Shown piece by piece: positions 5,342 to 28,393 of a stretch of DNA of 64,000 nucleotides. The notes under the pieces were generated by a model, which was not told where the DNA came from, searched no databases, and was given only the letters and a program-made list of their open reading frames with translations. Source of the DNA: Candidatus Saccharimonadota bacterium (GTDB lineage Bacteria > Patescibacteriota > Saccharimonadia > Saccharimonadales > JACDBH01); assembly GCA_013694995.1 (NCBI GenBank), contig JACDBH010000004.1, forward strand, positions 192,995 through 256,994, read 5' to 3'. Within the stretch, counting starts at the first letter, position 1; every line of letters starts with the position of its first letter. The translations under genes were made by a program, and so were the position numbers.

Positions 5342-5442
5342 CTAAATATCAAGAGAGTGGCGAGGGAACTGACCCGCTGACCCACCGGCAACCTGGACTT
5401 TCAAGGTGCTACCTTCAGCCCGCTTAAGGGAAAGATATAAAG
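5342..5442 (+). promoter_or_regulatory. SAM-I (S-box) riboswitch aptamer
   Basis: AUAUCAAGAGAGUGGCGAGGGAACUGACCCGCUGACCCACCGGCAACC...UCAAGGUGCUACC...GAAAGAUAU matches the conserved S-box blocks (AGAG.GGC, GAGGGA.UG.CCC, GGCAACC, AAGGUGCUA, GAAAGAU). P1 is ATATC/GATAT. It lies directly upstream of metK. Confidence 0.85.
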
Positions 5443-5499: not shown

Positions 5500-6489
5500 A
5501 TGTCTGCTATATATAAATCGGCTGAATCAGTCAGCCCTAAACACCCCGATAAGCTCTGCGATCAAATATCGGATGCAATACTTGACGTTTATCTGACACA
5601 GGATCCTGTTTCTCGGGTGGCCGTAGAAACGGTTGGCGGCCATGGCAAAGTTTTTGTGGTTGGTGAAGTAACCTCACAAACCCAAGTAGACATAATACCA
5701 ATCGTAAAACGACTGGCCGGCAACCTTGAAATTGATTCTAGGATAGTAGCCCAAAGCCCGGAGATAGCCCAAGGGGTGGACACTGGCGGTGCCGGTGACC
5801 AGGGGATTATGGTAGGATATGCCTGCAATGAAACTCCCGAACTTCTGCCTCTAGAAGTAGTATTGTCGCGCAAACTCAATCAATTTTTGTATGATAAATG
5901 GCCATATGACGGCAAAACCCAAGTTACGCTACGGGATGGTCAAATTGAATCAGTGGTAGCTAGTTTCCAGAATGCGTCTCAAAAAGAACTCACGCAACTT
6001 ACAAAAGACTGGCTAATCCAGGAGCCATTAGCCGTGATAAATAAAAAAGCTCTTAACCTACATATTAATCCGGCTGGCGATTGGCACCAGGGCGGATTTG
6101 ACGCCGATACAGGACTCACTGGTCGAAAACTAGTGGTTGATAATTACGGGCCGAGTATTCCAATAGGTGGCGGTTGCTTCAGTGGTAAGGATCCGAGCAA
6201 AGTTGATCGTTCAGCAGCTTATATCGCCCGAAAGATTGCCATAGACTATTTGAAGACTCGGAATGCAAAAGAAGTATTTTGCCATCTTGCTTATGCTATC
6301 GGCTACGACCAGCCTTTGGAGGCAACTGTGAACATAGATGGGGTGCAGGAAACGGTTGAGGGTTATGACTTGTCCCCAAGAGGCATCATAGCATCACTTA
6401 ATCTCAGACGGCCTATATACGAGGAAACTGCCAGGTGGGGGCATTTTGGACATAGCGGCTTTCCTTGGGAGTCATCAACTAAGACCTAG
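5500..6489 (+). CDS. metK: S-adenosylmethionine synthetase, compact form (329 aa)
   Basis: Motifs SESVSPKHPDKLCDQISDAILD, GAGDQGIM, DTGLTGRKLVVDNYG, GGGCFSGKDPSKVDRSAAYIARKIA. About 55 aa shorter than E. coli MetK. Confidence 0.9.
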   Translation: MSAIYKSAESVSPKHPDKLCDQISDAILDVYLTQDPVSRVAVETVGGHGKVFVVGEVTSQTQVDIIPIVKRLAGNLEIDSRIVAQSPEIAQGVDTGGAGDQGIMVGYACNETPELLPLEVVLSRKLNQFLYDKWPYDGKTQVTLRDGQIESVVASFQNASQKELTQLTKDWLIQEPLAVINKKALNLHINPAGDWHQGGFDADTGLTGRKLVVDNYGPSIPIGGGCFSGKDPSKVDRSAAYIARKIAIDYLKTRNAKEVFCHLAYAIGYDQPLEATVNIDGVQETVEGYDLSPRGIIASLNLRRPIYEETARWGHFGHSGFPWESSTKT

Positions 6490-6568: not shown

Positions 6569-8404
6569 ATGGCTCAAATTGTCCAGGATCCGGAAAAAAT
6601 CCGGAATATAGCTATCATTGCCCACGTCGACCATGGCAAGACGACGCTGGTTGATGGCTTACTGAAACAGTCCCAAACTTTCCGCGACAATCAAGCTGAA
6701 ATGAGCCAAAATTTAATCATGGACAGCGGCGACCAGGAAAAAGAGCGTGGCATTACGATTACAGCCAAGATTACGGCTGTTCAGCACGGTGAATATAGGA
6801 TTAATATTATTGACACTCCTGGTCATGCTGATTTTAGCGGCGAGGTCGAACGTACTCTCAATATGGCTGACGGTTGTCTACTTATAGTTGATGCTCAGGA
6901 AGGCCCGATGCCGCAGACTAAATTTGTTCTAAGTAAAGCACTAGCTAACAACCTTAAACCAATTGTAATTATAAATAAAATCGATAAAGAAGGCCGTCGG
7001 TTGGGTGCGGTTGAAGACGAGCTATCCGATCTATTTTTGGAGCTCGCCGTACATGAAGATCAGCTACACTACCCTACTTATTATGCTAATGGCCGGGCTG
7101 GAAAGGCCTGGAAAACAGTGCCGAACGACTTCGACGGCGCAGGCGATTTGGAAGTTATTTTTGAGGCAATTATTAATGAAGTACCTGCACCAAGCATCGA
7201 GCTGGACAAGCCGTTTCAAATGCTCATTAACGCCTTGGCCTGGGATAATTTTAAAGGCAAGTATGCCATTGGACGGATCACCCGCGGCCAGGTCAATGCC
7301 GGCGATACCGTAACTCTATGCAAAAAAGACGGCAAGCAGACAAAGGCCAGGGTGGACAATGTTTTCATGAGCCACGGTCTAGCTCGGTTTGAAGTAGGCA
7401 AGGGAGTCGCAGGTGATATCGTGCAACTGACAGGAATTAATGACGTTCAAATTGGTGAAACGCTTGCTGATGCCGAAGAGCCCGAAGCTTTACCTGTCCT
7501 GGAAGTCGAAGCTCCCACTCTTAGGATTTACTTGGGCCCTAATACCAGCCCGTTTAAGGGCCTGGAGGGCGAATTCAGCACCGGACGGCAGATAAAAGAA
7601 CGGCTCAATAAGGAGCTTGAGACGAACGTAGGTTTAAGAGTTGACGAAGATGGCATAGGCTTTACAGTTTCGGGGCGGGGTGAACTGCATTTAAGTGTCC
7701 TGATTGAAGCTATGCGCAGAGAGGGCTTTGAATTCGAGGTTGGCCGGCCACAAGTCGTAACCCATACTGAGAATGGCCGTGTAATGGAACCTGTCGAGGA
7801 AGTTATTATAGAGGTACCTGCCGAGCATGTCGGGGCGGTACAAATGGAACTAGGTACGCGAAGGGCTAACCTCAAAGAACAATTTAGCAGCACTAAAGGA
7901 GTTACAAAACTAATATACGACATGCCTACCCGTACCAGCCTAGGCATGCGTAATATCCTTTTGACTAGCACTAAAGGTACTATTATTATGAATACTTTGC
8001 CTATGGGCTATCAGGAGCTCGGTACTAGCCTGCAGCAGCTGCGCAATGGTGTACTTATAGCATTCGAAAATGGAATTAGCACACCTTACGCTCTCCAGAA
8101 TGTCGAAGAACGTGGCATATGTTTTATAAACCCAGCCGAAAAAGTGTATGCCGGTCAGATCATCGGCCTTAATACTCGCCAAGAAGATATGGAAATAAAT
8201 GTTTGTCGTGCCAAGCAGCTGACTAATATGCGTAGCAAATCTAGTGACGGCGCAGTTCAGCTAACGCCTCCGTTAGCGATGAGCCTAGAACAATGCCTTG
8301 ATTTTATAGAAAATGATGAGCTGCTTGAAGTGACCCCTAAGAGCCTACGCTTGCGTAAGCGTGAACTGAACCCTAATTTACGCAAGCGTGCTACAAAAAC
8401 GTAG
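6569..8404 (+). CDS. typA: translational GTPase TypA/BipA
   Basis: 611 aa. G1 [10 protein letters not shown]3 [13 protein letters not shown]. Full-length EF-G-like architecture typical of BipA. Confidence 0.95.
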
Positions 8405-8419
8405 TGTAAGCTTATATCT

Positions 8420-8803
8420 ATGCACGAAGTATCGGATGATGAGTTTTCAAAGCTAATCGCTGAACTTATGGACGAACTGCCGAAGGAATACATCAGCGGC
8501 CTGAAAAACGTCCTAATAACGTATGAGGACGAACCGTCGGCTGACCAACTCAACAAACAGAAACTCGCACCTTACCAGACATTATTTGGATTGTATGAAG
8601 GTGTACCACTTACTAATCGTGGCGCAGGCTACCAGCTGGTTTTACCGGACAGAATAACTATATTCAAAAAACCGATTCTTAATAACAGTGCTGATCTTAA
8701 GACTTTCCGCGCCCAAGTAAAGCACACGCTATGGCATGAAATCGCCCATTATTATGGGCTGAATCATGAACGTATCCACGAAATAGAAAAGAACTGGCAT
8801 TAA
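8420..8803 (+). CDS. zincin-like metallopeptidase family protein (DUF1025-like)
   Basis: 127 aa with C-terminal HEIAHYYG metal-binding motif and an acidic N-terminus, as in the small Zincin_1 family. Confidence 0.7.
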   Translation: MHEVSDDEFSKLIAELMDELPKEYISGLKNVLITYEDEPSADQLNKQKLAPYQTLFGLYEGVPLTNRGAGYQLVLPDRITIFKKPILNNSADLKTFRAQVKHTLWHEIAHYYGLNHERIHEIEKNWH

Positions 8804-11556: not shown

Positions 11557-13359
11557 TCAATTTTTAGTGTTTTCTGTAACTTTTCTTACATTTTTTCTGT
11601 TGAATATAGCAGTAAAAGTAGAACCTTTGTTCGGAATTGATATAACTGTAATCTCGCCGCCATTTAAACGAGCTAAGTATTGAGCCAAGTATAGGCCTAT
11701 GCCGCTGCCCGTAGTCTGCTTTGTCAACTCGTTTGGAATTCTTGAAAACTGCCGGAATAAGCGCTTTTGTTCACTGCGCTCAATACCAACGCCGTTGTCA
11801 GTCACTGATAGTAAACATTTATATGCCATCTTCTTTAGCTTTACAGTTATCTTGCCTCTAGCAGGAGTGTATTTAATTGCATTACTAATAAGGTTCTCGA
11901 TAATCATCCGGGCACTGTGTGGGTCGGCCTTTACTAAAATCCGTGTTTTAGGAAATATGAATTTGAGGCTGTGACCGGCATCGGCTATTTCTGTGCGCAT
12001 ACCATCCAATATATCCCTTGTAAGCTCAGCCAGATCAAACGTTTGCAGGCTGACTACGATCCTATCTGCATCGGCCTTTGCCATATAAAGGAATTCGTTG
12101 ATTATCCTCAACTGCCGTTCATTGCTTTCGTAAGCACGGCTTAAAATATCCCGCTGCTCATCGTTCATCTCGCCTACAAAGCCTTCTAGTAACATACCGA
12201 CATACTGTTTAACTCCAGTTGCCGGAGTACGCAACTGGTGCGATGCCAGCGACAACATGTCGTCCTTGGCGCGCTGCAGCTTCCGCTCTTCCTTATGAGA
12301 TAGGGCTTTGGTTCGCTTCTGAAGCAAGAAATATACGCCAGCTGCGACTATCAGAGAAAATATTGTCCCACCGTAAGCAACCGAGGCAGGACGCTCGCGG
12401 AGGGTCCGTGGCACAATAGTATCTTTAGCGCTATATTGGAACATCCACAACTGATCGAATAAAGTCACCTCGTTCCTAGTCACTAATTTATGGTTCTCTG
12501 CAACGTCGGAGCTATTCTGGCTGAATAAGCGAAACTCGTTTTTGTCGCTAGTACTATCATATATTTCAAAACTAAAGTTGGGGTCATTGGAATCGAATAT
12601 AGTTCCAAACAATTCTTCTGCCCGAAATGGCGTATATATATACCCAATAATTGCTGCCCGGCGTTGCTCAATGCTATCTAGAGGCATGTTAATCTTATAA
12701 ACTGGATGGAATAAGACAAAGCCGTGCTTCAAATCATTGTCTTTATCTTGGAGCAGCTGGACCAGATCGGTTAGCGAAACCCGTCCACTGTCGCGAGCTT
12801 TCTCCATCGCTGCCCGTCTTACAGGATCACTATACAAATCGTATCCCAATGTAGGCTGGTTAAGGGAATTAAAGGGCTCTATATAAGTTATGCTGCTGTA
12901 CAAATCACGTGTTGGTTCGCGAGGGCTAATATTAAAATTACTAAAGCCCTCGTTACGTATACGGTTTTCATAACCGTCAAGATCCGAAGGGCTGATAAAC
13001 TCGATGAAGCCTACGCCTAACAAACCTGGAAACCGTTCATTTATTTCAAGCGAGCCTATAAAACGTCGCCATTCATCACGGCTGACGCTAAAGGATCCGT
13101 TGAATATACCGACTCCGGCTCTAAGGATATTATCGTATTGATTCAAGCGCTGCTTGACAGTAGTTTCTACAAAAATAGAGCGTTGGAAAACCGTTTCGCT
13201 CTGACTTTTCTGTACATCACGAACAGCCGTACGCCAGCTAAGTCCAATAATAATCATTAGAGTCAAAAAGACGATGACCGTAGGTATTAAATGGATTGAA
13301 AGCAGGTCATAGCTTGTTAAGTGGTTTGTCTTCCATCTGTCAAAACGTAGTTTAATCAT
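11557..13359 (-). CDS. CHASE-domain sensor histidine kinase
   Basis: 600 aa. TM, then a periplasmic CHASE-like region (ITYIEPFNSLNQPTLGYDLYSDPVRRAAMEKARDSG...GFVLFHPVY), second TM, H-box SLASHQLRTPAT, N-box LISNAIKYT, G-box GSGIGLYLAQ. Confidence 0.85.
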   Translation of the reverse strand: MIKLRFDRWKTNHLTSYDLLSIHLIPTVIVFLTLMIIIGLSWRTAVRDVQKSQSETVFQRSIFVETTVKQRLNQYDNILRAGVGIFNGSFSVSRDEWRRFIGSLEINERFPGLLGVGFIEFISPSDLDGYENRIRNEGFSNFNISPREPTRDLYSSITYIEPFNSLNQPTLGYDLYSDPVRRAAMEKARDSGRVSLTDLVQLLQDKDNDLKHGFVLFHPVYKINMPLDSIEQRRAAIIGYIYTPFRAEELFGTIFDSNDPNFSFEIYDSTSDKNEFRLFSQNSSDVAENHKLVTRNEVTLFDQLWMFQYSAKDTIVPRTLRERPASVAYGGTIFSLIVAAGVYFLLQKRTKALSHKEERKLQRAKDDMLSLASHQLRTPATGVKQYVGMLLEGFVGEMNDEQRDILSRAYESNERQLRIINEFLYMAKADADRIVVSLQTFDLAELTRDILDGMRTEIADAGHSLKFIFPKTRILVKADPHSARMIIENLISNAIKYTPARGKITVKLKKMAYKCLLSVTDNGVGIERSEQKRLFRQFSRIPNELTKQTTGSGIGLYLAQYLARLNGGEITVISIPNKGSTFTAIFNRKNVRKVTENTKN

Positions 13360-13489: not shown

Positions 13490-14629
13490 ATGGAAAAAGG
13501 AAAAAGACTTATTTTAATTATAGCCATATTAATTATAGCTAGTGGAGCAGGGCTTTATTTATTCCGAGACAAACTCACAAGCAGATTCTTGGCACCGACA
13601 AAAAGCAACCTAACTCAAGGACTTACAGACCAAACTAGTCCAGAAGAAATTATAACTATCGCCCAAAACCTTAGTGTGCCATGGGATATTGCAGCTTTGC
13701 CAGGTGGCAATGGCGATATACTTGTGACTGAGCGTACCGGCACGCTAAAACGCATTGGTCAAAATAAGATAACCTATCTGGTGGCGGGTGTTGAAGCCGT
13801 AGGTGAGGGCGGTTTGTTGGGCTTGGCACTGGACCCGGACTTCGGCAATAACCAATATGTATATCTTTATCTGACTACTAAAGTAGTTAATGGGCTAGAA
13901 AACCGAGTCGAGCGGTACAAATTGGAAAGCGACATATTAACTGATAAAAAAATAATATTAACAGGAATTCCCGGTGCCGAAAATCATGACGGTGGGCAAT
14001 TGTCATTCGGTCCTGACGGCAAGCTTTATATTTCAACTGGAGACGGAGGTAAAGCAGACTCGGCTCAAAATATCAATTCATTGTCGGGCAAAATCCTTAG
14101 GTTGAACCCTGATGGAACTATACCTGCCGACAATCCCTTTAATAATGCGATATATAGTTACGGGCATCGGAATGTCCAAGGTATAGCGTGGGATAAAGCC
14201 GGAGGATTGTGGGCTACCGAACATGGCCGCTCAGGAATAAGCTCTGGATATGACGAACTGAATTTTATAGAGAAAGGTGCTAACTATGGCTGGCCGGTGA
14301 TAGAAGGTGACGAGATCCAGGAAGGTATGCGACGGCCAGTAGTGCATTCGGGCGAGAACGAAACATGGGCGCCAGCCGGTCTAGATTATGCGGATGGTTC
14401 GCTGTTCTTTGCCGGCCTACGAGGGTCTAGCTTGTATCAGGCGGTAATTATTTCAAACACAGAAGTTCAACTGACGGCGCACTTTACAAAAGATTACGGC
14501 AGGCTTAGAGCAGTAACTGTTTTTGACGAGGCAATTTACGTGTCATCCTCCAATACTGATGGACGGGGTACTCCGCTTAGTAGTGACGACAAGATTTACC
14601 GTATACCGCTCAGCTTGTTCATTGATTAG
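13490..14629 (+). CDS. PQQ-dependent sugar dehydrogenase (sorbosone/aldose dehydrogenase family), membrane-anchored
   Basis: 379 aa. Beta-propeller motifs GEGGLLGLALDPDF, HDGGQLSFGPDGKLYISTGD, GKILRLNPDG, YGHRNVQG, ANYGWP. Confidence 0.85.
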   Translation: MEKGKRLILIIAILIIASGAGLYLFRDKLTSRFLAPTKSNLTQGLTDQTSPEEIITIAQNLSVPWDIAALPGGNGDILVTERTGTLKRIGQNKITYLVAGVEAVGEGGLLGLALDPDFGNNQYVYLYLTTKVVNGLENRVERYKLESDILTDKKIILTGIPGAENHDGGQLSFGPDGKLYISTGDGGKADSAQNINSLSGKILRLNPDGTIPADNPFNNAIYSYGHRNVQGIAWDKAGGLWATEHGRSGISSGYDELNFIEKGANYGWPVIEGDEIQEGMRRPVVHSGENETWAPAGLDYADGSLFFAGLRGSSLYQAVIISNTEVQLTAHFTKDYGRLRAVTVFDEAIYVSSSNTDGRGTPLSSDDKIYRIPLSLFID

Positions 14630-19716: not shown

Positions 19717-20214
19717 CTAACGGAAGTTTGTGAATTGTAACGGGAAGTCAAAGTCCGTCGTGCGTAGTACACCCATAATAGCCTGCAAATCATCCTTACT
19801 TGTGCTTGTTACTCTGACTTCTTCGCCCTGGATCTGGGTCTTGGCTTTCGGGAACTTTCCTCGGATTAAAGCCGTTATCTCCTTGGCTTTTTCTTGGTCC
19901 AGACCTTTCTTGAACGGAACTTCTTTGGCGGTCTTCATGTTATTAACAACTGACTGCTTGGTTGTGTCCAATATCTTTTGGGATTGGTTGCGGCCGGCAA
20001 GTTTCTTACGGACAATATCTAGAATAGAATCTATCTGCCAGTCACCATTACCAGTAATTTTTAGGCCTGATTTATAATCGTCGAGCCACTCCACGGCAGC
20101 GGGCGTTCCTTTGAAATCATATCTGCTTACAAGTTCACGTTGTGTTTGGTCATAAACGTTGTTTAACTCCGACTTATCATAGTCTGATACGATATCGAAT
20201 GAAAAAGTAGCCAT
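19717..20214 (-). CDS. yajQ: YajQ family nucleotide-binding protein (UPF0234)
   Basis: 165 aa. FDIVSDYDKSELNNVYDQTQRELVSRYDFKG is the family N-terminal signature. Confidence 0.85.
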   Translation of the reverse strand: MATFSFDIVSDYDKSELNNVYDQTQRELVSRYDFKGTPAAVEWLDDYKSGLKITGNGDWQIDSILDIVRKKLAGRNQSQKILDTTKQSVVNNMKTAKEVPFKKGLDQEKAKEITALIRGKFPKAKTQIQGEEVRVTSTSKDDLQAIMGVLRTTDFDFPLQFTNFR

Positions 20215-20236
20215 AGCTGTATTATAATCAGTAGTA

Positions 20237-21262
20237 ATGAGTTACCAAAACCCAGATGTTGCCCGCGTGGCCGAAGAGCTTATGGCTAAGCTTGACAGCC
20301 TACCTGATAAAAAGCTTATTCTTCGTGATCCTTTGCTGCGTGGTCTATTTGATCAACTGAAAACTTTGCCCCCACAAGAACGTGCATTATTTGGGAAAGA
20401 AGTCAACGAGCTTCGTTTAAAACTAAATTCGTTAGCTGGCGATGGCATTGTAATAGAAGAACAACTCCCCATCGATATCACAGCGCCTTGGGACGTAAAC
20501 ACCCCCGTCGACAAGATGCCAGACTTTTTCCCGACTGAACAAGGCAGCATACATCCTCTGATGCAGGAAATTGAATCAATCTGTAATATTTACCAGCGTA
20601 TGGGATTCATGGTGGAAGAGTCGCGCGAAATTGATGATGATTTCCATATGTTCGAGAGTCTCAATTTCCCTGCAGGCCATCCAGCCCGTGACGATTACGA
20701 CACATTCATGACCGACGAAGGGCTGATTGCACCCGCCCACACCAGTACTATGCAGAACAGGGTGCTAAAAAAATACAAAGATAGCTTGGAGCAGGGCGAG
20801 CCGATTGCTGTTGTCATACCGGGGCGGGTGTTTAGAAACGAAGACCTCGACGTAACGCACGAACATACCTTCTATCAGCTCGAGGGAGTATATGTAGGCG
20901 AGGGCGTAAATGTTGGCAACCTGATTGCCACGCTTGGCGCCTTCATGAATGAGTATTTTAGCCAGCAGTTAAAAACCAAGCTGCAACCATTTTATTTCCC
21001 GTTCACCGAGCCTAGCTTTGAATTTGCTATTGAGCGGCCAACGGCACTAAAAAAAGGCAATACCGAAGCAGACCAGTGGTTGGAGCTACTTGGATGCGGC
21101 ATGATCCATCCTAAAGTACTTAAAATGGCTGATATAGACCCAGAAATTTACACCGGTTTTGCATGGGGTGGTGGCATCGAACGTCTGGTAATGATGAAAC
21201 ACGGCATTGAGGATATCCGTCACTTCGAATCCGGCAAACTGGAATTTTTGAGGCAATTTTAA
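20237..21262 (+). CDS. pheS: phenylalanine--tRNA ligase alpha subunit
   Basis: 341 aa. Class II motifs FPAGHPARD, GRVFRNE, GFAWGGGIERLVM. Confidence 0.95.
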   Translation: MSYQNPDVARVAEELMAKLDSLPDKKLILRDPLLRGLFDQLKTLPPQERALFGKEVNELRLKLNSLAGDGIVIEEQLPIDITAPWDVNTPVDKMPDFFPTEQGSIHPLMQEIESICNIYQRMGFMVEESREIDDDFHMFESLNFPAGHPARDDYDTFMTDEGLIAPAHTSTMQNRVLKKYKDSLEQGEPIAVVIPGRVFRNEDLDVTHEHTFYQLEGVYVGEGVNVGNLIATLGAFMNEYFSQQLKTKLQPFYFPFTEPSFEFAIERPTALKKGNTEADQWLELLGCGMIHPKVLKMADIDPEIYTGFAWGGGIERLVMMKHGIEDIRHFESGKLEFLRQF

Positions 21263-23778: not shown

Positions 23779-25596
23779 GTGAAAAAGCTGGTAGTATTTT
23801 TGTTTCTGGCCTTTGCGGCGGGAATAACAATGCTGTTTCCAGGTGCTGCATACGCCGATGTTAACGATTTTGTCATCAACGATTTTTCGGCGGAATATTA
23901 CCTTAGTAATGCCGATTCACAAGGTTTTGTAATTGTAAGAGAAAAAATAGAGCTTACATTTAGTGACAATAATCATGGTATTTTGAGGGCATTACCAAAT
24001 ACCTATAAGGATAAACGGCTGCATCTTGATGTGGTCGATGTACGATACGGCGATGGCAGCAGTATACCGTATACGGAATATGAAGAAAACGACAACACGG
24101 TACTTAAAATTGGCGATGCCAACAAAACCGTTACTGGTAAGCAAGTTTATGAAATTGATTATTCGTATAAGAATGTCATAACCTTTTATGAAGGCTACGA
24201 TGAGTTTTATTGGGATATCAATGGTGACGACTGGGATCAACCGGTTGAGCACGTTCGAGCTAGGTTGTATCTAGACGAGGCGCTGGAATTACAACCAAAT
24301 AAACTTAAATGTTTTAGCGGTAGCTACGGTGAACAGCAACAAAACTGCAAAATTACATCAAGTAACAGCATAACTGATGTATTGAGATTAAGTGGCCAAG
24401 ATTTGGTAGAAAGAACCTACGATACAGTCATAATAGCTGAAACAATTGCAGCATTGCAGCCTAATCAGACACTCACAGTTATTGCAGTAACTGATAAGTC
24501 CTATTTTATGCCAGAAACAACTGGCGAACGATTACTAGGTATAATTCCGCATTTAATAAAGTTTATAATTCCACCCATTCTACTAGGTGGTTATGCAGTA
24601 CGTCACTGGCTAAGGGTTGGTCGCGATCCTAGAGGTAAGCGCACTATCGTTCCGGAGTATGAAGCACCTTTTAATTTACGACCCGCCGAAATCGGTGTGC
24701 TGGCTGATTTTAAAGTCGACCATAAGGACATTAGCGCGACGATAATTGATTTGGCTGTTCGCGGTTATATAAAAATAATTGAAGAGAAAAAAATCCGCAA
24801 ATTGCGCCGAGATATCTTAGTGTATTCTTATGAACTAATGAATATTGACGCCTCAGGACTTTTGGATTACGAAAAAACAATACTTATAGGTATTTTTGGA
24901 TCAAATCTGATTCTTGGTACAGTTGTCACGCTAGAGAGCCTTAAAAACAAATTTTATACCTCAGTTGCAGCCGCCCAGAAAGAAATAACAAAAAAAGTAG
25001 TATCAGATGGCCTATTTGCAGGAAATCCTCTAACTGCGGGTTATCGACTATGGGTCTTAATGGTACTTTCAATTATTACTACTAGCATATTAGGGCCCAG
25101 GCTTGGAGTTTCGTTTGTTGGGGGAATGATAATAACAATAATAATCATTCTATTCTGTGCTTTAGCAATGCCAGCCCGCACATTAAAAGGGGTAGAAGCA
25201 AAGGAAAAAGCCGAGGGGTTAAAGCTCTATATTCAAACTGCCGAAGCTGATCGGATTAAGATGATGCAAAGCCCCGACGCTAAATACAATCAAACTTCCG
25301 GGCCTAAAAGATCAGTGGAATTATTTGAAAAACTGCTACCATACGCAGCGGTATTTGGGGTGGAAAAGCAATGGGCGGCTGAGTTTAAAGATATTTATCA
25401 GACGCCACCGAAGTGGTTTAGTGGTAACTACAATGCATTCAGCACAGGTTATCTGGCTGGTGCGTTAACAGGTGGCATGAATACGGCAATGGCTGCATCT
25501 TTTGCTGCACCTGGTAATTCAGGTAGTTCCGGCTTCAGTGGTGGCGGAGGGTTCTCGGGAGGAGGCGGCGGTGGTGGCGGTGGTGGCGGATGGTAA
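23779..25596 (+). CDS. DUF2207 domain-containing membrane protein with poly-Gly C-terminus
   Basis: 605 aa. Signal peptide, extracellular N-domain, several TMs, C-terminal SGFSGGGGFSGGGGGGGGGGGW typical of DUF2207. Confidence 0.75.
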   Translation: MKKLVVFLFLAFAAGITMLFPGAAYADVNDFVINDFSAEYYLSNADSQGFVIVREKIELTFSDNNHGILRALPNTYKDKRLHLDVVDVRYGDGSSIPYTEYEENDNTVLKIGDANKTVTGKQVYEIDYSYKNVITFYEGYDEFYWDINGDDWDQPVEHVRARLYLDEALELQPNKLKCFSGSYGEQQQNCKITSSNSITDVLRLSGQDLVERTYDTVIIAETIAALQPNQTLTVIAVTDKSYFMPETTGERLLGIIPHLIKFIIPPILLGGYAVRHWLRVGRDPRGKRTIVPEYEAPFNLRPAEIGVLADFKVDHKDISATIIDLAVRGYIKIIEEKKIRKLRRDILVYSYELMNIDASGLLDYEKTILIGIFGSNLILGTVVTLESLKNKFYTSVAAAQKEITKKVVSDGLFAGNPLTAGYRLWVLMVLSIITTSILGPRLGVSFVGGMIITIIIILFCALAMPARTLKGVEAKEKAEGLKLYIQTAEADRIKMMQSPDAKYNQTSGPKRSVELFEKLLPYAAVFGVEKQWAAEFKDIYQTPPKWFSGNYNAFSTGYLAGALTGGMNTAMAASFAAPGNSGSSGFSGGGGFSGGGGGGGGGGGW

Positions 25597-25599
25597 GAC

Positions 25600-25627
25600 T
25601 TGCAATTATTTTTTCTGGCGGTATAAT
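25600..25627 (+). promoter_or_regulatory. near-consensus sigma70-type promoter
   Basis: TTGCAA (25600-25605), 16-nt spacer, TATAAT (25622-25627). It begins 4 nt after the DUF2207 stop and faces the gene-free interval. Confidence 0.4.
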
Positions 25628-25633
25628 ATCTCC

Positions 25634-26536
25634 AGTTTTCGGTTGAGTTTTACTCCCGATAACGTCCTTTAACAGGCGTGGAAAATAAATCGTTAATATA
25701 AAAAAGAGCATGTTTAGGTAGCAGTCCAAACTCATAATTGTGAGCTGGGATTGCTATCTAAGCAAAAAATTCGACTCGACTCCGCATCTTAAGTAGTCAG
25801 ATGAAAGGATGGTCGACCAAGCCCACTCGAAGCCAGTGCAGCTACAACTGCTTCGGATAATTCTTGTGGGTAAGGACTGAGGTGCTACTTGCATACGGAC
25901 TCCGTATGTGAAAGTACGGGCATTACTGTAGGTGACGATGTGTAAAATATCTTTGCGTCATTCTATAGTGTATGTGCCTGCAGGATTTATTCCTGGCACC
26001 TCGCAATCTGCTGGAGAGAAAGAAATAGAACGTAGTAATCGCAGTTTAGGGTCCATCCCCAATCCCTGCCGGGACTCGGAACGCAGTTACTTCCTATTTA
26101 AACTCAATAGACCTTAACTGGTCTTTGGAGTACTTTCTCTCCAGCACCTTCGCGGCAACAATCGCTTAGACTGTTGTCCAGTTCCGGGCTCCCTGGTCAG
26201 CCTTGCTGATTGCTGTCCCGTCGGCTGGCGAGTGCAGATCGGGGAGCCCGACCAATTGTTCCTACAAAATGAAAGAAGGTGATCGATTTGGCTCCCAGGC
26301 CAGGTCAGAGAGGTTGCAAAGGTTGCTGCAATTCTTGTCGCGGCCAAGTGGGGCGCAGTGGACTGGGAGGCTTGAGCCGACCCACCTGCCGTGCCTGCAA
26401 CAATACTGGTCACACCCGAGGATGCGTGGAGCGCCCCCGCGGTTCCTGACCTTCAAAAAATGACGATTCAGTAAGCTTCGGCTTAAAAAGCTTTAGGCTC
26501 ACCCCTAATCTTTTGCTTCCACGCCTGTTCGTCACC
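25634..26536 (+). ncRNA. candidate large structured non-coding RNA, unknown class
   Basis: No credible CDS in 1,024 nt. 59% G+C by hand count over 26141-26460. Nested perfect helices of 13, 14, 10, 10, 9, 7 and 7 bp, a UUCG tetraloop hairpin, and G-U wobbles that only work on the + strand. Ends and strand are uncertain. Confidence 0.4.
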
Positions 26537-26620
26537 CGGCTTCATCAATATGATTGGTGGTTCCAGGTGACGATAGGTTCTCAATAATTCTAGAAAGCGC
26601 TATACTTATCTACAAAGTAG

Positions 26621-28393
26621 ATGAGACAAATTGCACGCATATTAAAATACACATCCGTATTGTGGCGGTATTACTTTGCAATATCTATATTTACGATTCT
26701 TCTAGCTGTAATGACGCTAGTTCAGCCTTTTATCACCGGCAAAGTTATCGATGAACTAAGGATGGGTACTGAAGCCCGTGTAGGGTTTGTACTATTTATG
26801 GCGGCAATAATATTCATTTTAGATTTTAGCAGCACGATTTTTAGTAACATCGGCGGCTATATTGGCGACCAGATGAAAGTTAAGCTCTCAAAAATCTTAA
26901 GTGAGCGTTATTACCAGCACATATTGCAATTGCCGCAGCAATACTTTGATACCGAACTAACCGGCAAGATTATTAATCGTCTTAACCGCTCCATAACTCA
27001 AATCGCTGATTTCATGCAGATGATGAGCAACAACTTCCTGCAATTTATCTTTAGTACTATTTTTTCGTTAGTGGTAGTAGCATTTTATAGCTGGCAGGTT
27101 GCACTGCTGCTGTTTGCACTCTATCCGATCTTCATTCTTATGACAGTACGCACAAGTAATACATGGCTAAAATTCCAAGCAAAGAAAAACGAGCACAGCG
27201 ATATAGCCAGTGGGCGCTTTGCTGAGGCCATCGGCCAGGTCAAGGTTGTAAAAAGTTTTATACAGGAAAAAAGAGAACTTAGTTTCTTAAATAAACACTA
27301 CAGTGCTGTTGTGTTTATTAATCGCCCTCAATCCAAGTATTGGCATGTCAATGACATCAAACGCCGCCTGATACTTAATGCAATTTTCTTCGGAGTGTAT
27401 GCGCTCATTTTTGTACAAGCCGCCCAAGGTACTTTGACCCCGGGGGAGGCAGTAGCACTTATCCTATACGCCATGAATATCCGTATTCCAATTTTTACTA
27501 TTAGTTTTTTGGTCGAGAATACCCAGCGAGCTGTCAGTGACAGCAAGGATTATTTTGAAATTATGGAGATCAAGCCGCAAATATCTGATAGTTTTGACGC
27601 TAAAACACTAAAAATAAGCAAGGGCGCGATTCGTTTTCAGGAAGTGAGTTTTGCTTATGATTCCAAACCAGTGTTGAATAATATTAGTTTTGGGATAAAA
27701 CCAGATAGCAAGGTTGCCCTGGTTGGAGAAAGTGGCGAAGGCAAGACAACGCTCACCAATCTTCTCATGCGGCTTTATGAGCCACAAACTGGTAGTATTC
27801 AAATAGACGGTCAAGATATCACTACAGTCACTCAAAGTAGTCTGCGTAATTCTATCGGTGTAGTATTTCAGGATCCTGCTCTTTTTAGTGGCTCGATTGC
27901 TGAAAATATCAGCTATGCCAACCCAAAAGCTAGCCGCGAGCAAATTATAGCTGCTGCCAAAGCCGCCAATGCAGACGAATTTGTCGATAAACTTAAAAAG
28001 GGCTATGAAACCGAGATTGGCGAGAGAGGCCTGCGGCTCAGTGGCGGCCAGAAACAACGCATTGCTATAGCACGGGCATTATTAAAAGACGCACCGATTT
28101 TAGTCCTGGATGAAGCTACTAGCAGTCTCGATAGTCGTTCTGAAGCTATGGTTCAAGAAGCCTTGGAGCGCTTGATGAAAAATCGTACTACAATTATTAT
28201 TGCTCACAGGCTCAGCACAATTCAAAACGTTGATGAAATAATTACCTTTAAGAATGGTGCGGTAGTTGAAATCGGTAGTCCTAATAAGCTGGCTAAATCA
28301 GGCGGGATATATGCACAGTTGCTTGAACTACAAATGCGTAAGCCGACCGAGCGCACCAAGCAACAGCTTAAAGACTATGAAATGGCAGTGTAG
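26621..28393 (+). CDS. ABC transporter, fused permease/ATPase (MsbA/multidrug-exporter type)
   Basis: 590 aa. 6-TM exporter domain, Walker A GESGEGKTT, signature LSGGQKQRIAIARA, Walker B ILVLDEATS. Confidence 0.9.
   Translation: MRQIARILKYTSVLWRYYFAISIFTILLAVMTLVQPFITGKVIDELRMGTEARVGFVLFMAAIIFILDFSSTIFSNIGGYIGDQMKVKLSKILSERYYQHILQLPQQYFDTELTGKIINRLNRSITQIADFMQMMSNNFLQFIFSTIFSLVVVAFYSWQVALLLFALYPIFILMTVRTSNTWLKFQAKKNEHSDIASGRFAEAIGQVKVVKSFIQEKRELSFLNKHYSAVVFINRPQSKYWHVNDIKRRLILNAIFFGVYALIFVQAAQGTLTPGEAVALILYAMNIRIPIFTISFLVENTQRAVSDSKDYFEIMEIKPQISDSFDAKTLKISKGAIRFQEVSFAYDSKPVLNNISFGIKPDSKVALVGESGEGKTTLTNLLMRLYEPQTGSIQIDGQDITTVTQSSLRNSIGVVFQDPALFSGSIAENISYANPKASREQIIAAAKAANADEFVDKLKKGYETEIGERGLRLSGGQKQRIAIARALLKDAPILVLDEATSSLDSRSEAMVQEALERLMKNRTTIIIAHRLSTIQNVDEIITFKNGAVVEIGSPNKLAKSGGIYAQLLELQMRKPTERTKQQLKDYEMAV

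Follow-up and report, generated by a model that had tools for sequence, protein, structure and literature searches.

The large ornate bacterial RNAs GOLLD, ROOL, and OLE have conserved cores. Ornate RNAs form ordered multimeric structures (PMC12286853). The unit described here, which lies between a DUF2207 gene and an ABC exporter gene in a Saccharibacteria genome, shares with GOLLD, ROOL, and OLE a size of 0.4 to 1.1 kb, dense secondary structure, a transcription unit of its own, and a restricted phylogenetic range. In contrast to their conserved multi-helix cores, its family conserves only the terminal 110 to 250 nt around a hypervariable interior, and the copy in our window (the whole 64-kb stretch of DNA analyzed) holds a translated-looking ORF.

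In the dual-function RNAs Staphylococcus aureus RNAIII/hld, SgrS/SgrT, and SR1/SR1P, a structured regulatory RNA is combined with a small protein. Our unit resembles them as a long structured RNA with a short conserved ORF under protein-level selection, and in RNAIII, too, long-range helices close the molecule. Most family members, however, lack the ORF, the sequences are unrelated to those RNAs, and regulation by base pairing is established only for the known RNAs. Phages carry RNase III-bounded cistrons and moron cassettes, as in the T7 early mRNAs and the lambdoid morons. Like these, the unit is a self-contained promoter-to-hairpin element between co-directional genes, with varying cargo and flanks that could define processing sites. 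It differs from them in having no phage context and no DNA similarity in a phage collection, and its flanks pair across the whole cargo rather than forming local hairpins between cistrons. In invertons, MITEs, attC sites, and retrons (a1/a2), as here, inverted repeats bracket a variable segment, and tandem arrangement occurs. The integron attC site, a substrate of 57 to 141 nt for an integrase, has R''/R' cores of the form RYYYAAC...GTTRRRY.

The leader and spacers of the rRNA operon, with their boxB hairpin, boxA, long-range processing stems around 16S and 23S, and Nus-factor complex for antitermination and chaperoning, present the same order of elements as the unit, namely, a promoter, a hairpin, a U-rich boxA-like motif, the first (5') strand of a long-range helix, a long and highly structured untranslated RNA, and the 3' strand. 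In both, the payload is enclosed by pairing flanks (in our family by helix P1, in 15/15 members), and a long untranslated RNA would need protection from Rho (PMC7665894, PMC5725501). Unlike that of an rRNA operon, the payload here is nonribosomal and unconserved and can be a protein gene, P1 at 10 to 15 bp is far shorter than the rRNA processing stems, and the boxA resemblance is statistically weak and missing in some members.

A proposed transcription unit between DUF2207 and the ABC exporter

The 1-kb gap between the two genes (25597 to 26620) carries a promoter and the helices listed in an initial annotation, which had regarded the gap as a gene-free, GC-rich, densely base-paired interval. 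We interpret it, with a probability of roughly 0.55, as an autonomous + strand transcription unit of about 940 nt that is clamped at its ends, carries a small, occluded ORF behind a structured leader, and belongs to a small Saccharibacteria family of framed transcripts. Its features are as follows.

25600 to 25627, + strand: sigma-70-type promoter TTGCAA-N16-TATAAT (scan match, 10/12), with a predicted transcription start near 25634
25634 to 26572, + strand: whole transcript of about 940 nt, predicted at both ends, starting from the promoter and finishing with the conserved 3' hairpin
25635 to 25663, + strand: 5' hairpin P0, a domain detected by covariance model R1 in every family locus searched
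25639 to 25642 with 25656 to 25659, + strand: lower stem of P0, UCGG/CCGA, which covaries
25643 to 25644, + strand: UU bulge of P0, invariant
25645 to 25648 with 25652 to 25655, + strand: upper stem of P0, GAGU/ACUC
25664 to 25674, + strand: conserved boxA-like linker GUCCUUUAACA, overlapping the first 4 nt of P1
25671 to 25683, + strand: 5' strand of P1, AACAGGCGUGGAA, the long-range 5'-3' clamp (helix 1 of the initial annotation; 13/13 Watson-Crick pairs, probability 0.96)
26517 to 26529, + strand: 3' strand of P1, UUCCACGCCUGUU, on the same basis
25688 to 25695, + strand: 5' strand of P2, AAUCGUUA, a second closing helix just inside P1, in the minimum free energy (MFE) structure
26461 to 26468, + strand: 3' strand of P2, UGACGAUU, in the MFE structure
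25684 to 26275, + strand: hyper-structured, apparently noncoding leader of about 590 nt with helices 2, 3, 4, 4a, 4b, and 5 of the initial annotation (z = -12.3; pair probabilities, 0.70 to 1.00)
26275 to 26282, + strand: Shine-Dalgarno (SD) sequence GAAGGUGA, serving the 53-codon ORF
26288 to 26449, + strand: unannotated gene with a UUG start for a basic protein of 53 aa with 7 Cys and 1 His, MAPRPGQRGCKGCCNSCRGQVGRSGLGGLSRPTCRACNNTGHTRGCVERPRGS, conserved at the protein level
26472 to 26485, + strand: C(UUCG)G-capped hairpin, helix 7 of the initial annotation, in the 3' segment between P2 and P1 (pair probability, 0.94)
26498 to 26505, + strand: C-rich, anti-SD-like tract CUCACCCC, just 5' of the P1 3' strand
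26530 to 26572, + strand: 3' terminal hairpin, which RNAalifold folds as one common hairpin in 11 members

The promoter was proposed earlier at the same position and is the top promoter-like site of the region. A -35/-10 pair at an equal distance from the 5' hairpin is readable in nearly all homologous loci, being unclear in L026iii. A second promoter-like site (26578 to 26606) lies between the unit and the exporter gene, and the two are co-directional. There is no U-tract after the 3' hairpin, which is thus not a canonical intrinsic terminator. Because no intrinsic terminator was found 3' of the unit before the exporter gene, the RNA might simply read through into that gene. The G+C content of 26141 to 26460 was recounted as the same 189/320 (59%) reported before, versus 43.3% for the whole window.

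The dense base pairing ascribed to the gap is borne out by folding. The + strand of 25630 to 26560 has an MFE of -368.6 kcal/mol versus -286.6 +/- 7.8 kcal/mol for dinucleotide shuffles (z = -10.5), compared with z = -5.6 for the minus strand and z = -0.3, +0.5, and +1.0 for three flanking coding segments used as a control. The whole predicted transcript has z scores of -9.7 to -10.5, and the region of the 53-codon ORF by itself has a z score of +1.1. All listed helices agree with the window in coordinates, sequence, and complementarity, and the two perfect inverted repeats, one of 13 bp (25671 to 25683/26517 to 26529) and one of 14 bp (26009 to 26022/26133 to 26146), were recovered by an independent repeat search. 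Helices 1, 2, 3, 4, 4a, 4b, 5, and 7 have mean base-pair probabilities of 0.70 to 1.00, but those of helices 5a, 6, and 6a are about 0; helices 6 and 6a lie within or border the 53-codon ORF.

At gathering thresholds, the sole Rfam match in the whole window is a SAM riboswitch at 5343 to 5441. For 25400 to 26800 at an E value of <=10, only four chance-level matches (13.8 to 16.3 bits) were obtained, and six homologous loci at an E value of <=5 gave nothing relevant. This covariance-model comparison, which included GOLLD, ROOL, OLE, raiA, and HEARO, found no family, and membership in any of those five was rejected for want of a match. A core of the GOLLD/ROOL/OLE type was rejected as well, since only the terminal 40 to 170 nt align among homologues and no interior k-mer is enriched. 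ARAGORN found no tRNA or tmRNA gene in the window, and with Rfam also empty at an E value of <=10, we rejected tmRNA, RNase P, SRP, and 6S RNA; riboswitches, T-boxes, and ribosomal-protein leaders were rejected because they had no Rfam match and the downstream gene is not constant. The absence of tmRNA, RNase P, SRP, T-box, and group II intron signatures noted earlier agrees with the lack of Rfam matches in the window and the homologous loci. Pfam gave nothing significant for the ORFs of the leader or the four ORFs initially listed in the gap, and a decayed known gene is unsupported, as these four have no Pfam or PDB relatives.

Conserved ends and variable interiors of the family

Homologous intervals, as the initial annotation had proposed to look for, were found through synteny, pattern scans, a covariance model, and protein match. 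They comprise 15 homologous frames from Saccharibacteria MAGs and metagenome contigs (about 10 in all) but are conserved over only about 55 to 125 nt at each end. A strict scan for the 5' motif gave four loci in genome contigs, all of them true (4/4), three in metagenome contigs, of which one was true and two (L016 and L017) were chance matches, and one in viral contigs, which was the same false positive as in the metagenome contigs. The family's real spread is underestimated because the 5' pattern is too strict and misses the divergent frames L018m, L020m, and L026.

The ends of the frames are held together by pairing. The GGUUGAG of P0 is invariant in 11 members. P1 measures 10 to 15 bp across the 15 frames and occurs in the unconstrained MFE structure of 15/15, either in full or with at most one pair missing. 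The closing helix of the initial annotation, whose base-pair probability is 0.96, covaries among homologues, with compensatory changes in 7 to 8 of the 11 to 12 pairs, although such change in P1 would be equally expected for DNA inverted repeats held identical by recombination. The equivalent of P2 in L004, AAUCGUUU/AAACGAUU, lies in the same place, and a tract of the (A)CUCCC or CUCACC type is found at the equivalent place in all core members. The 3' hairpin consists of a lower stem, CGUCACC/GGUGACG, with a C.A mismatch, an internal loop, and an upper stem, CAUCAAU/AUUGGUG, with U:G wobbles; compensatory changes affect 13 of its 16 pairs. A minus-strand role, suggested by the lower-stem C.A mismatch becoming G:U, was rejected in view of the + strand wobbles of the upper stem and P0. 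For the frame as a whole, an unbiased MAFFT alignment has 95.4% of its cells paired versus 38 to 47% with the pairing slid, and compensatory changes occur in 21/34 pairs, a value reached by 0/500 shuffles; these statistics are optimistic, given related sequences and a small family of 15 frames from about 10 genomes or contigs. The covariation analysis covered the frame (P0, P1, and the 3' hairpin); the interiors failed to align in a full-length MAFFT alignment of four members.

The + strand orientation proposed at the outset is supported by wobbles that pair only on that strand in P0, P1 (L005 and L013), and the 3' hairpin and by the direction of the promoter. Stability, too, favors the + strand over the minus strand, in 10/11 whole frames, 13/15 interiors, and 13/15 P0 regions.

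Between these ends, the interiors span 285 to 1,011 nt and are mostly noncoding and hyper-structured; z scores are -4.1 to -18 across all 15 frames, with neighboring genes at about 0. By pairwise blastn, only the terminal 40 to 170 nt can be aligned, save for the ORF region shared by the window and L011, and interiors remain unalignable even between members whose ends are 75 to 90% identical. The leader in the window cannot be aligned to its homologues except for helix 5, which is common to L011, and no k-mers or motifs are enriched in the interiors relative to shuffles. Two frames enclose protein genes, of 156 and 174 aa, and a convincing ORF is missing in most members; frames that lack an ORF still have an intact promoter, P0, P1, and 3' hairpin, with z scores of -7.6 to -18. 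Frames also occur in tandem, e.g., in L026, where a noncoding frame and an ORF frame are separate tandem units. From conservation confined to the ends, unalignable interiors, and frames that enclose protein genes, it follows that the conserved entity is a transcript frame with a variable payload. This frame family is new, previously undescribed, and restricted to the Saccharibacteria clade.

The frame occurs once in the 64-kb window. Among syntenic relatives its presence or absence varies across three intergenic sites of the same neighborhood, and its downstream neighbor can be the ABC exporter, NUDIX, yajQ, another frame, or a convergent gene. The exporter in relatives often abuts DUF2207 with no unit between them.

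The linker next to P1 matches the gammaproteobacterial boxA consensus, GYTCTTTAANA (PMC5725501), at 10/11 positions in the window (25664 to 25674), 11/11 in L011, and 9 to 10/11 in most core members, although this consensus may not be that of Saccharibacteria. The motif is missing in the L020A, L020m, and L026 frames, and the window contains 10 boxA-like matches of such quality versus 15 expected by chance. We therefore rejected the match as independent evidence, and the linker is a lead only.

A trans-acting large structured noncoding RNA or ribonucleoprotein scaffold like OLE, ROOL, and GOLLD, with the folded interior as the machine and the frame as its terminal domain, would account for the size of 0.4 to 1.1 kb, the extreme folding scores, the + strand bias, a G+C content above the genome average, the unit's own promoter, and the want of a convincing ORF in most members. 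Such an interior might bind proteins, form multimers, or localize to the membrane. We consider this improbable, since the known ornate RNAs possess conserved cores and the interiors here have no conserved sequence, motif, or alignable architecture even at 75 to 90% end identity; nor is there an Rfam match, and the frame also carries protein genes. The initial view of a large structured noncoding RNA of unknown class is supported as far as a discrete, promoter-driven, structured + strand RNA with no Rfam match is concerned, but the copy in the window is partly coding (26288 to 26449). The resemblance to GOLLD, ROOL, and OLE did not hold up, as only the ends are conserved among the 15 homologues and two of the frames hold protein genes.

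A small Cys-rich protein gene in the window copy

The gap is not gene-free, as had been stated; 26288 to 26449 on the + strand is a conserved protein-coding ORF, one of those dismissed in the initial annotation, and could also be read from 26279 (26279/26288 to 26449). Compared with its closest orthologue, in L011, it has 16 identical, 24 synonymous, and 13 nonsynonymous codons, and the differences by codon position (16/14/31) include Ser AGY<->UCN and Arg CGN<->AGR switches. The 53-codon ORF is, judging from this codon comparison, under purifying selection. The ORF is present in 3/15 frames, or 4/15 counting a variant in L015, with orthologues in L011 and L025/L026, and stands directly upstream of the ABC exporter in the window, L011, and L025. 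A full HMMER search found one relative, the third orthologue, P0121 (E = 2e-7), and tblastn gave E values of 1e-18 to 1e-30. A word-indexed protein search found no relatives of the peptide, and none were found in Pfam or the PDB. We also considered a double-glycine (LGG) leader or bacteriocin and rejected it, because the exporter has no recorded peptidase domain and the N-terminal half of the peptide is Cys rich.

The GAAGGAGGUGA-N5-UUG context of the start is kept in L011 and L015. In the window, six of the eight SD bases have unpaired probabilities of 0.00 to 0.09, with 26146 to 26151 as the pairing partner, and folding predictions for three ORF-bearing members place both the SD sequence and the start codon in paired regions. 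Since the ORF is a real conserved gene, it should be translated at least sometimes, and 26288 to 26449 does look like an ORF that is translated under some conditions.

These observations raise the question of whether the unit is simply an mRNA for the Cys-rich protein with a long regulatory 5' untranslated region that works as a thermometer, as a ligand sensor, or as a helicase-dependent switch, and whether the homologues without the ORF are decaying copies. Purifying selection on the ORF, its strong, conserved SD and UUG context, the occlusion of both in three members, and its place directly 5' of the exporter in the window, L011, and L025 speak for such an mRNA. We nevertheless find it doubtful, because the ORF is found in just 3/15 frames (4 with the L015 variant), the ORF-less frames are intact and strongly folded (z = -7.6 to -18) rather than decayed, and L026 has its noncoding and ORF frames as separate tandem units.

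Proposed function of the frame and its significance

It has also to be considered that the conserved entity acts as DNA, P1 being the inverted repeats of an inverton or a MITE-like or cassette-like element and its covariation reflecting concerted evolution of the repeats. The perfect 10- to 15-bp inverted repeats with a conserved ACAG.../...CUGU core around variable cargo would fit such an element, as would variable presence among syntenic relatives, the three intergenic sites, and tandem copies. We regard it as very unlikely. The promoter, P0, and the 3' hairpin are conserved outside the repeats, P0 and the 3' hairpin covary, and the G:U wobbles of P0, P1 (L005 and L013), and the 3' hairpin are + strand specific. 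The five orientable payload genes (window, L011, L026iii, L018m, and L020m) all run with the promoter, which together with the lack of a recombinase family among the Pfam-annotated genes within +/-10 kb makes an inverton unlikely. None of these annotated genes belongs to an invertase, transposase, integrase, or reverse transcriptase family. A MITE or IS element was rejected because the P1 repeats are internal to conserved flanks, the 64 kb contain one copy, in a syntenic position, and no transposase is annotated within +/-10 kb; no target-site duplication is visible at the borders of the unit, and the phage collection contains no match. In length the frame exceeds an attC site or a retron noncoding RNA many times over. 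For attC, the flanks UUUAACAGG...CCUGUUCGU have no purine run after GTT and do not fit RYYYAAC/GTTRRRY, and the strands are 285 to 1,011 nt apart; for a retron msr-msd, there is no reverse transcriptase gene in the neighborhood, and the unit has several times the length of a retron noncoding RNA. IS200/IS605-like end hairpins and a group II intron were considered and also rejected. A cis-acting leader or attenuator of the exporter gene, or a decayed gene or junk spacer, for which the co-direction with the exporter, the missing terminator, and the random look of the leader ORFs could be cited, is hardly credible when relatives have NUDIX, yajQ, another frame, or a convergent gene after the unit and the exporter often abuts DUF2207 alone, when a promoter-like site (26578 to 26606) separates unit and exporter, when the leader ORFs have no protein-family match, and when a z score of -12 with covariation is unexpected of junk.

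Under the framed-transcript interpretation, the frame probably has its role in processing or stabilizing the RNA. P1, P0, and the 3' hairpin would tie both ends of the RNA into one junction, which may shield it from exonucleases and/or mark a site for double-strand-specific processing. Such a site would allow the unit to be excised from read-through transcripts by the logic of the stems that flank rRNAs. The boxA-like sequence abutting P1 may recruit Nus factors, which would keep RNA polymerase Rho resistant on a long untranslated RNA and would help the distant strands of P1 meet. The small ORF would be translated only upon remodeling of the leader. Two observations go against this role of the frame: P1, at 10 to 15 bp, is below the length of classical RNase III substrates, and a hypervariable interior is unusual in a functional RNA.

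As a tentative extension, with the odds clearly against it, the frame may be a modular, rRNA-operon-like expression and processing cassette of the Saccharibacteria clade, by which interchangeable nonribosomal payloads are produced, folded, excised, and stabilized, the RNA payloads themselves being the product. The payloads would be hyper-structured RNAs, a two-zinc-type mini-protein, and small secreted proteins, and the fast-evolving, hairpin-dense RNAs would act, e.g., as double-stranded-RNA-like decoys or effectors in the conflict of an epibiont with phages or its host.

Bacteria of the candidate phyla radiation have tiny genomes with hardly any spare DNA. An important role is therefore likely for a 1-kb unit that several lineages have retained, at times as tandem copies, and that combines a promoter of its own with a folding energy at least 10 standard deviations beyond chance. 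Its evolutionary pattern is unusual, with conserved, covarying ends around an interior that is hypervariable yet always hyper-structured; homology-based discovery of noncoding RNAs seeks conserved cores and would miss such a frame. The unit also provides a new conserved 53-residue Cys-rich protein that was unannotated and has no known relatives. If rRNA-like processing or antitermination proves true, that logic would have been reused for nonribosomal payloads, and the frame would be a natural RNA stabilization cassette of possible use in RNA engineering. If the cassette reading is correct, the family would represent a new class of bacterial RNA genes defined by their frame instead of by a core.

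A covarying RNA frame

The interval between the DUF2207 stop codon (25596) and the start of the ABC-exporter ORF (26621) holds one of 15 distinct units (429 to 1124 nt) from Saccharibacteria genomes and metagenome contigs. Each is a plus-strand unit with a promoter, and covarying RNA helices join its two ends around a payload that evolves quickly; in the window, this payload consists of a structured leader and a small conserved ORF. The four elements common to every unit, here called the frame, are a -35/-10 promoter and the following:

P0, 5' hairpin: invariant GG-UU-GAG...CUC-C, with the UU bulged
P1, long-range helix of 10-15 bp: conserved base (A/G)ACAG(G/A).../...(C/U)CUGU(U/C); 5' strand 40-50 nt from the 5' end in 11 aligned members and deeper in two L026 frames; 3' strand 40-55 nt from the 3' end
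3' hairpin: upper stem with conserved C:G, A:U, and U:G pairs; lower stem broken by C.A mismatches

Covariation was tested on "mini" constructs, with GAAA standing in for the interior, that were aligned blind with MAFFT. RNAalifold recovered exactly P0, P1, and the 3' hairpin from this alignment, with compensatory changes in 21/34 pairs. Paired cells amounted to 95.4%, versus 38 to 47% with partners slid by 1 to 3 columns, and the observed values were reached by 0/500 column shuffles, an optimistic figure given that the sequences are few and related. In a hand-anchored alignment of P0 and P1, 8 of the 12 P1 pairs were compensated, and the unconstrained minimum free energy (MFE) structure contained P1 in 15/15 units, which upholds the closing helix of the initial annotation. 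G:U wobbles that exist only on the plus strand occur in P0, the P1 of L005 and L013, and the upper 3' hairpin, and the plus strand is more stable than the minus strand in 13/15 interiors and 13/15 P0 regions. This places the frame at the RNA level, on the strand predicted by the promoter, as originally proposed.

In the 3' hairpin, the lower stem has C.A/A.C mismatches at conserved positions (window 26537/26565; equivalents in L002, L004, L005, L011, L012, L020A, and L020B) that would be G:U on the minus strand, whereas the upper stem needs plus-strand U:G wobbles. Protonated A+.C pairs are one possible reading of these mismatches, a recognition feature another. Several members have another P0-like hairpin (UUGAGC-loop-GCUCC) just inside the P1 3' strand, with a C-rich ACUCCC tract after it:

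L013 ~2360-2330, minus strand
L020 ~7925-7950
L002 ~14110-14135
L020 ~8700-8725

The 5' and 3' regions thus bear similar hairpins, an arrangement that could accommodate a dimeric binder or allow alternative pairing.

The payload of the window copy

The initial annotation described the interval as a gene-free noncoding RNA resembling GOLLD, ROOL, or OLE, and its underlying observations were largely right. All listed helix arms proved complementary on direct inspection, an independent repeat search recovered both perfect inverted repeats (13 bp and 14 bp), the G+C count of 26141 to 26460 is 189/320 versus 43.3% for the window, and TTGCAA-N16-TATAAT (25600 to 25627) is the top promoter-like site. 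Compared with shuffles, the folding z score is -10.5 on the plus strand and -5.6 on the minus strand; three neighboring coding segments gave -0.3 to +1.0, and the noncoding leader (25684 to 26275) on its own gave -12.3. Mean pair probabilities in the partition function were 0.70 to 1.00 for helices 1, 2, 3, 4, 4a, 4b, 5, and 7 of the original list and about 0 for 5a, 6, and 6a. A 10-nt direct repeat, AGGTGACGAT, occurs at 25930 to 25939 and, as the terminal hairpin's 3' arm, at 26565 to 26574, possibly by chance.

The interval is not gene free, as it encodes a 53-residue peptide that is conserved at the protein level in L011:

26288-26449, plus strand: small ORF with a UUG start; Shine-Dalgarno sequence GAAGGUGA at 26275-26282

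Against L011, 16 codons are identical, 24 synonymous, and 13 nonsynonymous, with differences by codon position of 16/14/31, among them Ser AGY<->UCN and Arg CGN<->AGR switches. A third orthologue (P0121; 52% identity, E = 2e-7) occupies a frame of its own upstream of an ABC exporter. Conservation follows the pattern C-x2-CC-x2-C...LGGL...TC-x2-CNNT-x-H-x3-C...RP-x-G, whose seven Cys and one His would suffice for two metal sites; no relatives were found in Pfam or PDB. L015 has a different 43-amino-acid peptide (CxxCxGxG) after an identical GAAGGAGGUGA-N5-UUG context, and the remaining units lack the ORF. Structure prediction for the window, L011, and L015 places both the Shine-Dalgarno sequence and the start codon in base pairs. 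Helices 6 and 6a are unsupported because the ORF segment is no more structured than shuffles (z = +1.1).

The mini-gene lies directly upstream of the ABC exporter in 3/3 genomes (window 26288 to 26449, L011 ~1599 to 1757, and L025 720 to 899), and the three peptides share an LGG motif, a superficial likeness to a peptide-plus-exporter pair; however, the exporter's records list no peptidase domain. Reading the unit as a plain mRNA with an extended untranslated region leaves the many ORF-less yet intact units unexplained.

Variable interiors and patchy distribution

Pairwise blastn alignments are limited to the terminal 40 to 170 nt, except for the ORF region of the window and L011, and no interior k-mers were enriched over shuffles. 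All units nevertheless fold well beyond shuffles (z, -4.1 to -18). A covariance model of the 5' domain detected two more units, both divergent, in the yajQ-pheS gap on the opposite strand:

L018 ~1355-533, minus strand: frame L018m, enclosing a gene for a 174-amino-acid protein
L020 ~1426-672, minus strand: frame L020m, enclosing a gene for a 156-amino-acid protein

Perfect 13- to 14-bp P1 helices span both genes, and promoter, P0, and 3' hairpin are also present. Each protein has an N-terminal hydrophobic helix, several Cys, and no Pfam family; by eye, the two show no obvious similarity to each other. The window's yajQ-pheS gap (20214 to 20237) has only 22 nt and no counterpart frame.

In L002, the closest syntenic relative (DUF2207, 57% identity), DUF2207 and the exporter are 17 nt apart, and the homologous unit is displaced by one gene, between the exporter and NUDIX. 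Units downstream of DUF2207 also occur in L004, L005, and L020 to L022; none was found at these syntenic sites in L006, L008 to L010, L019, and L023. L006 has a 418-nt DUF2207-exporter gap (11801 to 12218) with no recognizable frame (no covariance model match; GGTTGAG absent). A strict 5'-motif scan added four units in species-representative genomes and one in metagenomes (L015; 442 nt, one of the smallest), and a full HMMER search using the small peptide as query added contigs L025/L026, with three units in tandem. Tandem arrays of two or three frames lie between DUF2207 and the ABC exporter:

L020 7362-8005 and 8055-8785: L020A and L020B
L026 ~60-140, 222-893, and 942-1370: three frames

In L026, a noncoding frame and a Cys-rich-ORF frame are separate neighbors; in the window, both payloads lie within a single P1.

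Patchy presence, three alternative insertion sites, and tandem copies show local gain, loss, or duplication of units and would also suit a DNA-level inverton or mobile cassette. That explanation is disfavored, since the conserved, covarying elements sit outside the repeats, the wobbles are strand specific, all orientable payload genes point the same way as the promoter, and the annotation within +/-10 kb lists no recombinase family.

Placement of the family and a possible role

The original assignment to no known RNA class held: in cmscan against Rfam 15, the interval had no match above 16 bits even at E<=10, and six homologous loci had none. The sole Rfam match in the window is a SAM riboswitch (RF00162; 5343 to 5441, plus strand; 54.9 bits, E = 6.6e-10) upstream of ORF 5500 to 6489. 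ARAGORN found no tRNA or tmRNA, a phage collection contained no sequence match to the interval, no published account of an RNA of this kind in Saccharibacteria or Patescibacteria came to light, and Rfam has no family for it. The framed RNAs are a real, new, clade-restricted family. An OLE/ROOL/GOLLD-like RNA machine is disfavored because the interior is not conserved; with the small conserved ORF, this leaves the initial reading partly right. Among large structured or dual-function bacterial RNAs, the family most fittingly counts as a new variant, with the frame as its defining feature in place of a core. A leader of the ABC exporter is also disfavored, as the downstream gene varies among units and the exporter has a separate promoter-like site (26578 to 26606, TTCTCA-N17-TATACT). 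The annotated gap upstream of the exporter is ~1.1 kb because its recorded start lies 90 nt inside the longest ORF (560 versus 590 amino acids; window 26621 to 26710, L001 12843 to 12932).

The predicted order of elements (hairpin, GUCCUUUAACA, 5' strand of the long-range helix, long untranslated structured RNA, 3' strand) appears to mirror that of rRNA operons. In rRNA operons, Nus factors on boxA render RNA polymerase Rho resistant, and the flanking stems are processing sites. GUCCUUUAACA matches the boxA consensus GYTCTTTAANA (PMC5725501) at 10/11 positions, and its L011 equivalent at 11/11, although this consensus is gamma-proteobacterial and may differ in Saccharibacteria. Matches of this quality are not above chance frequency in the window and the motif is absent in some members, so the boxA resemblance is a lead only. 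Long untranslated CRISPR transcripts use the same Nus/boxA solution against Rho (PMC7665894). For the Saccharibacteria units, the frame would serve as a stability and/or processing module.
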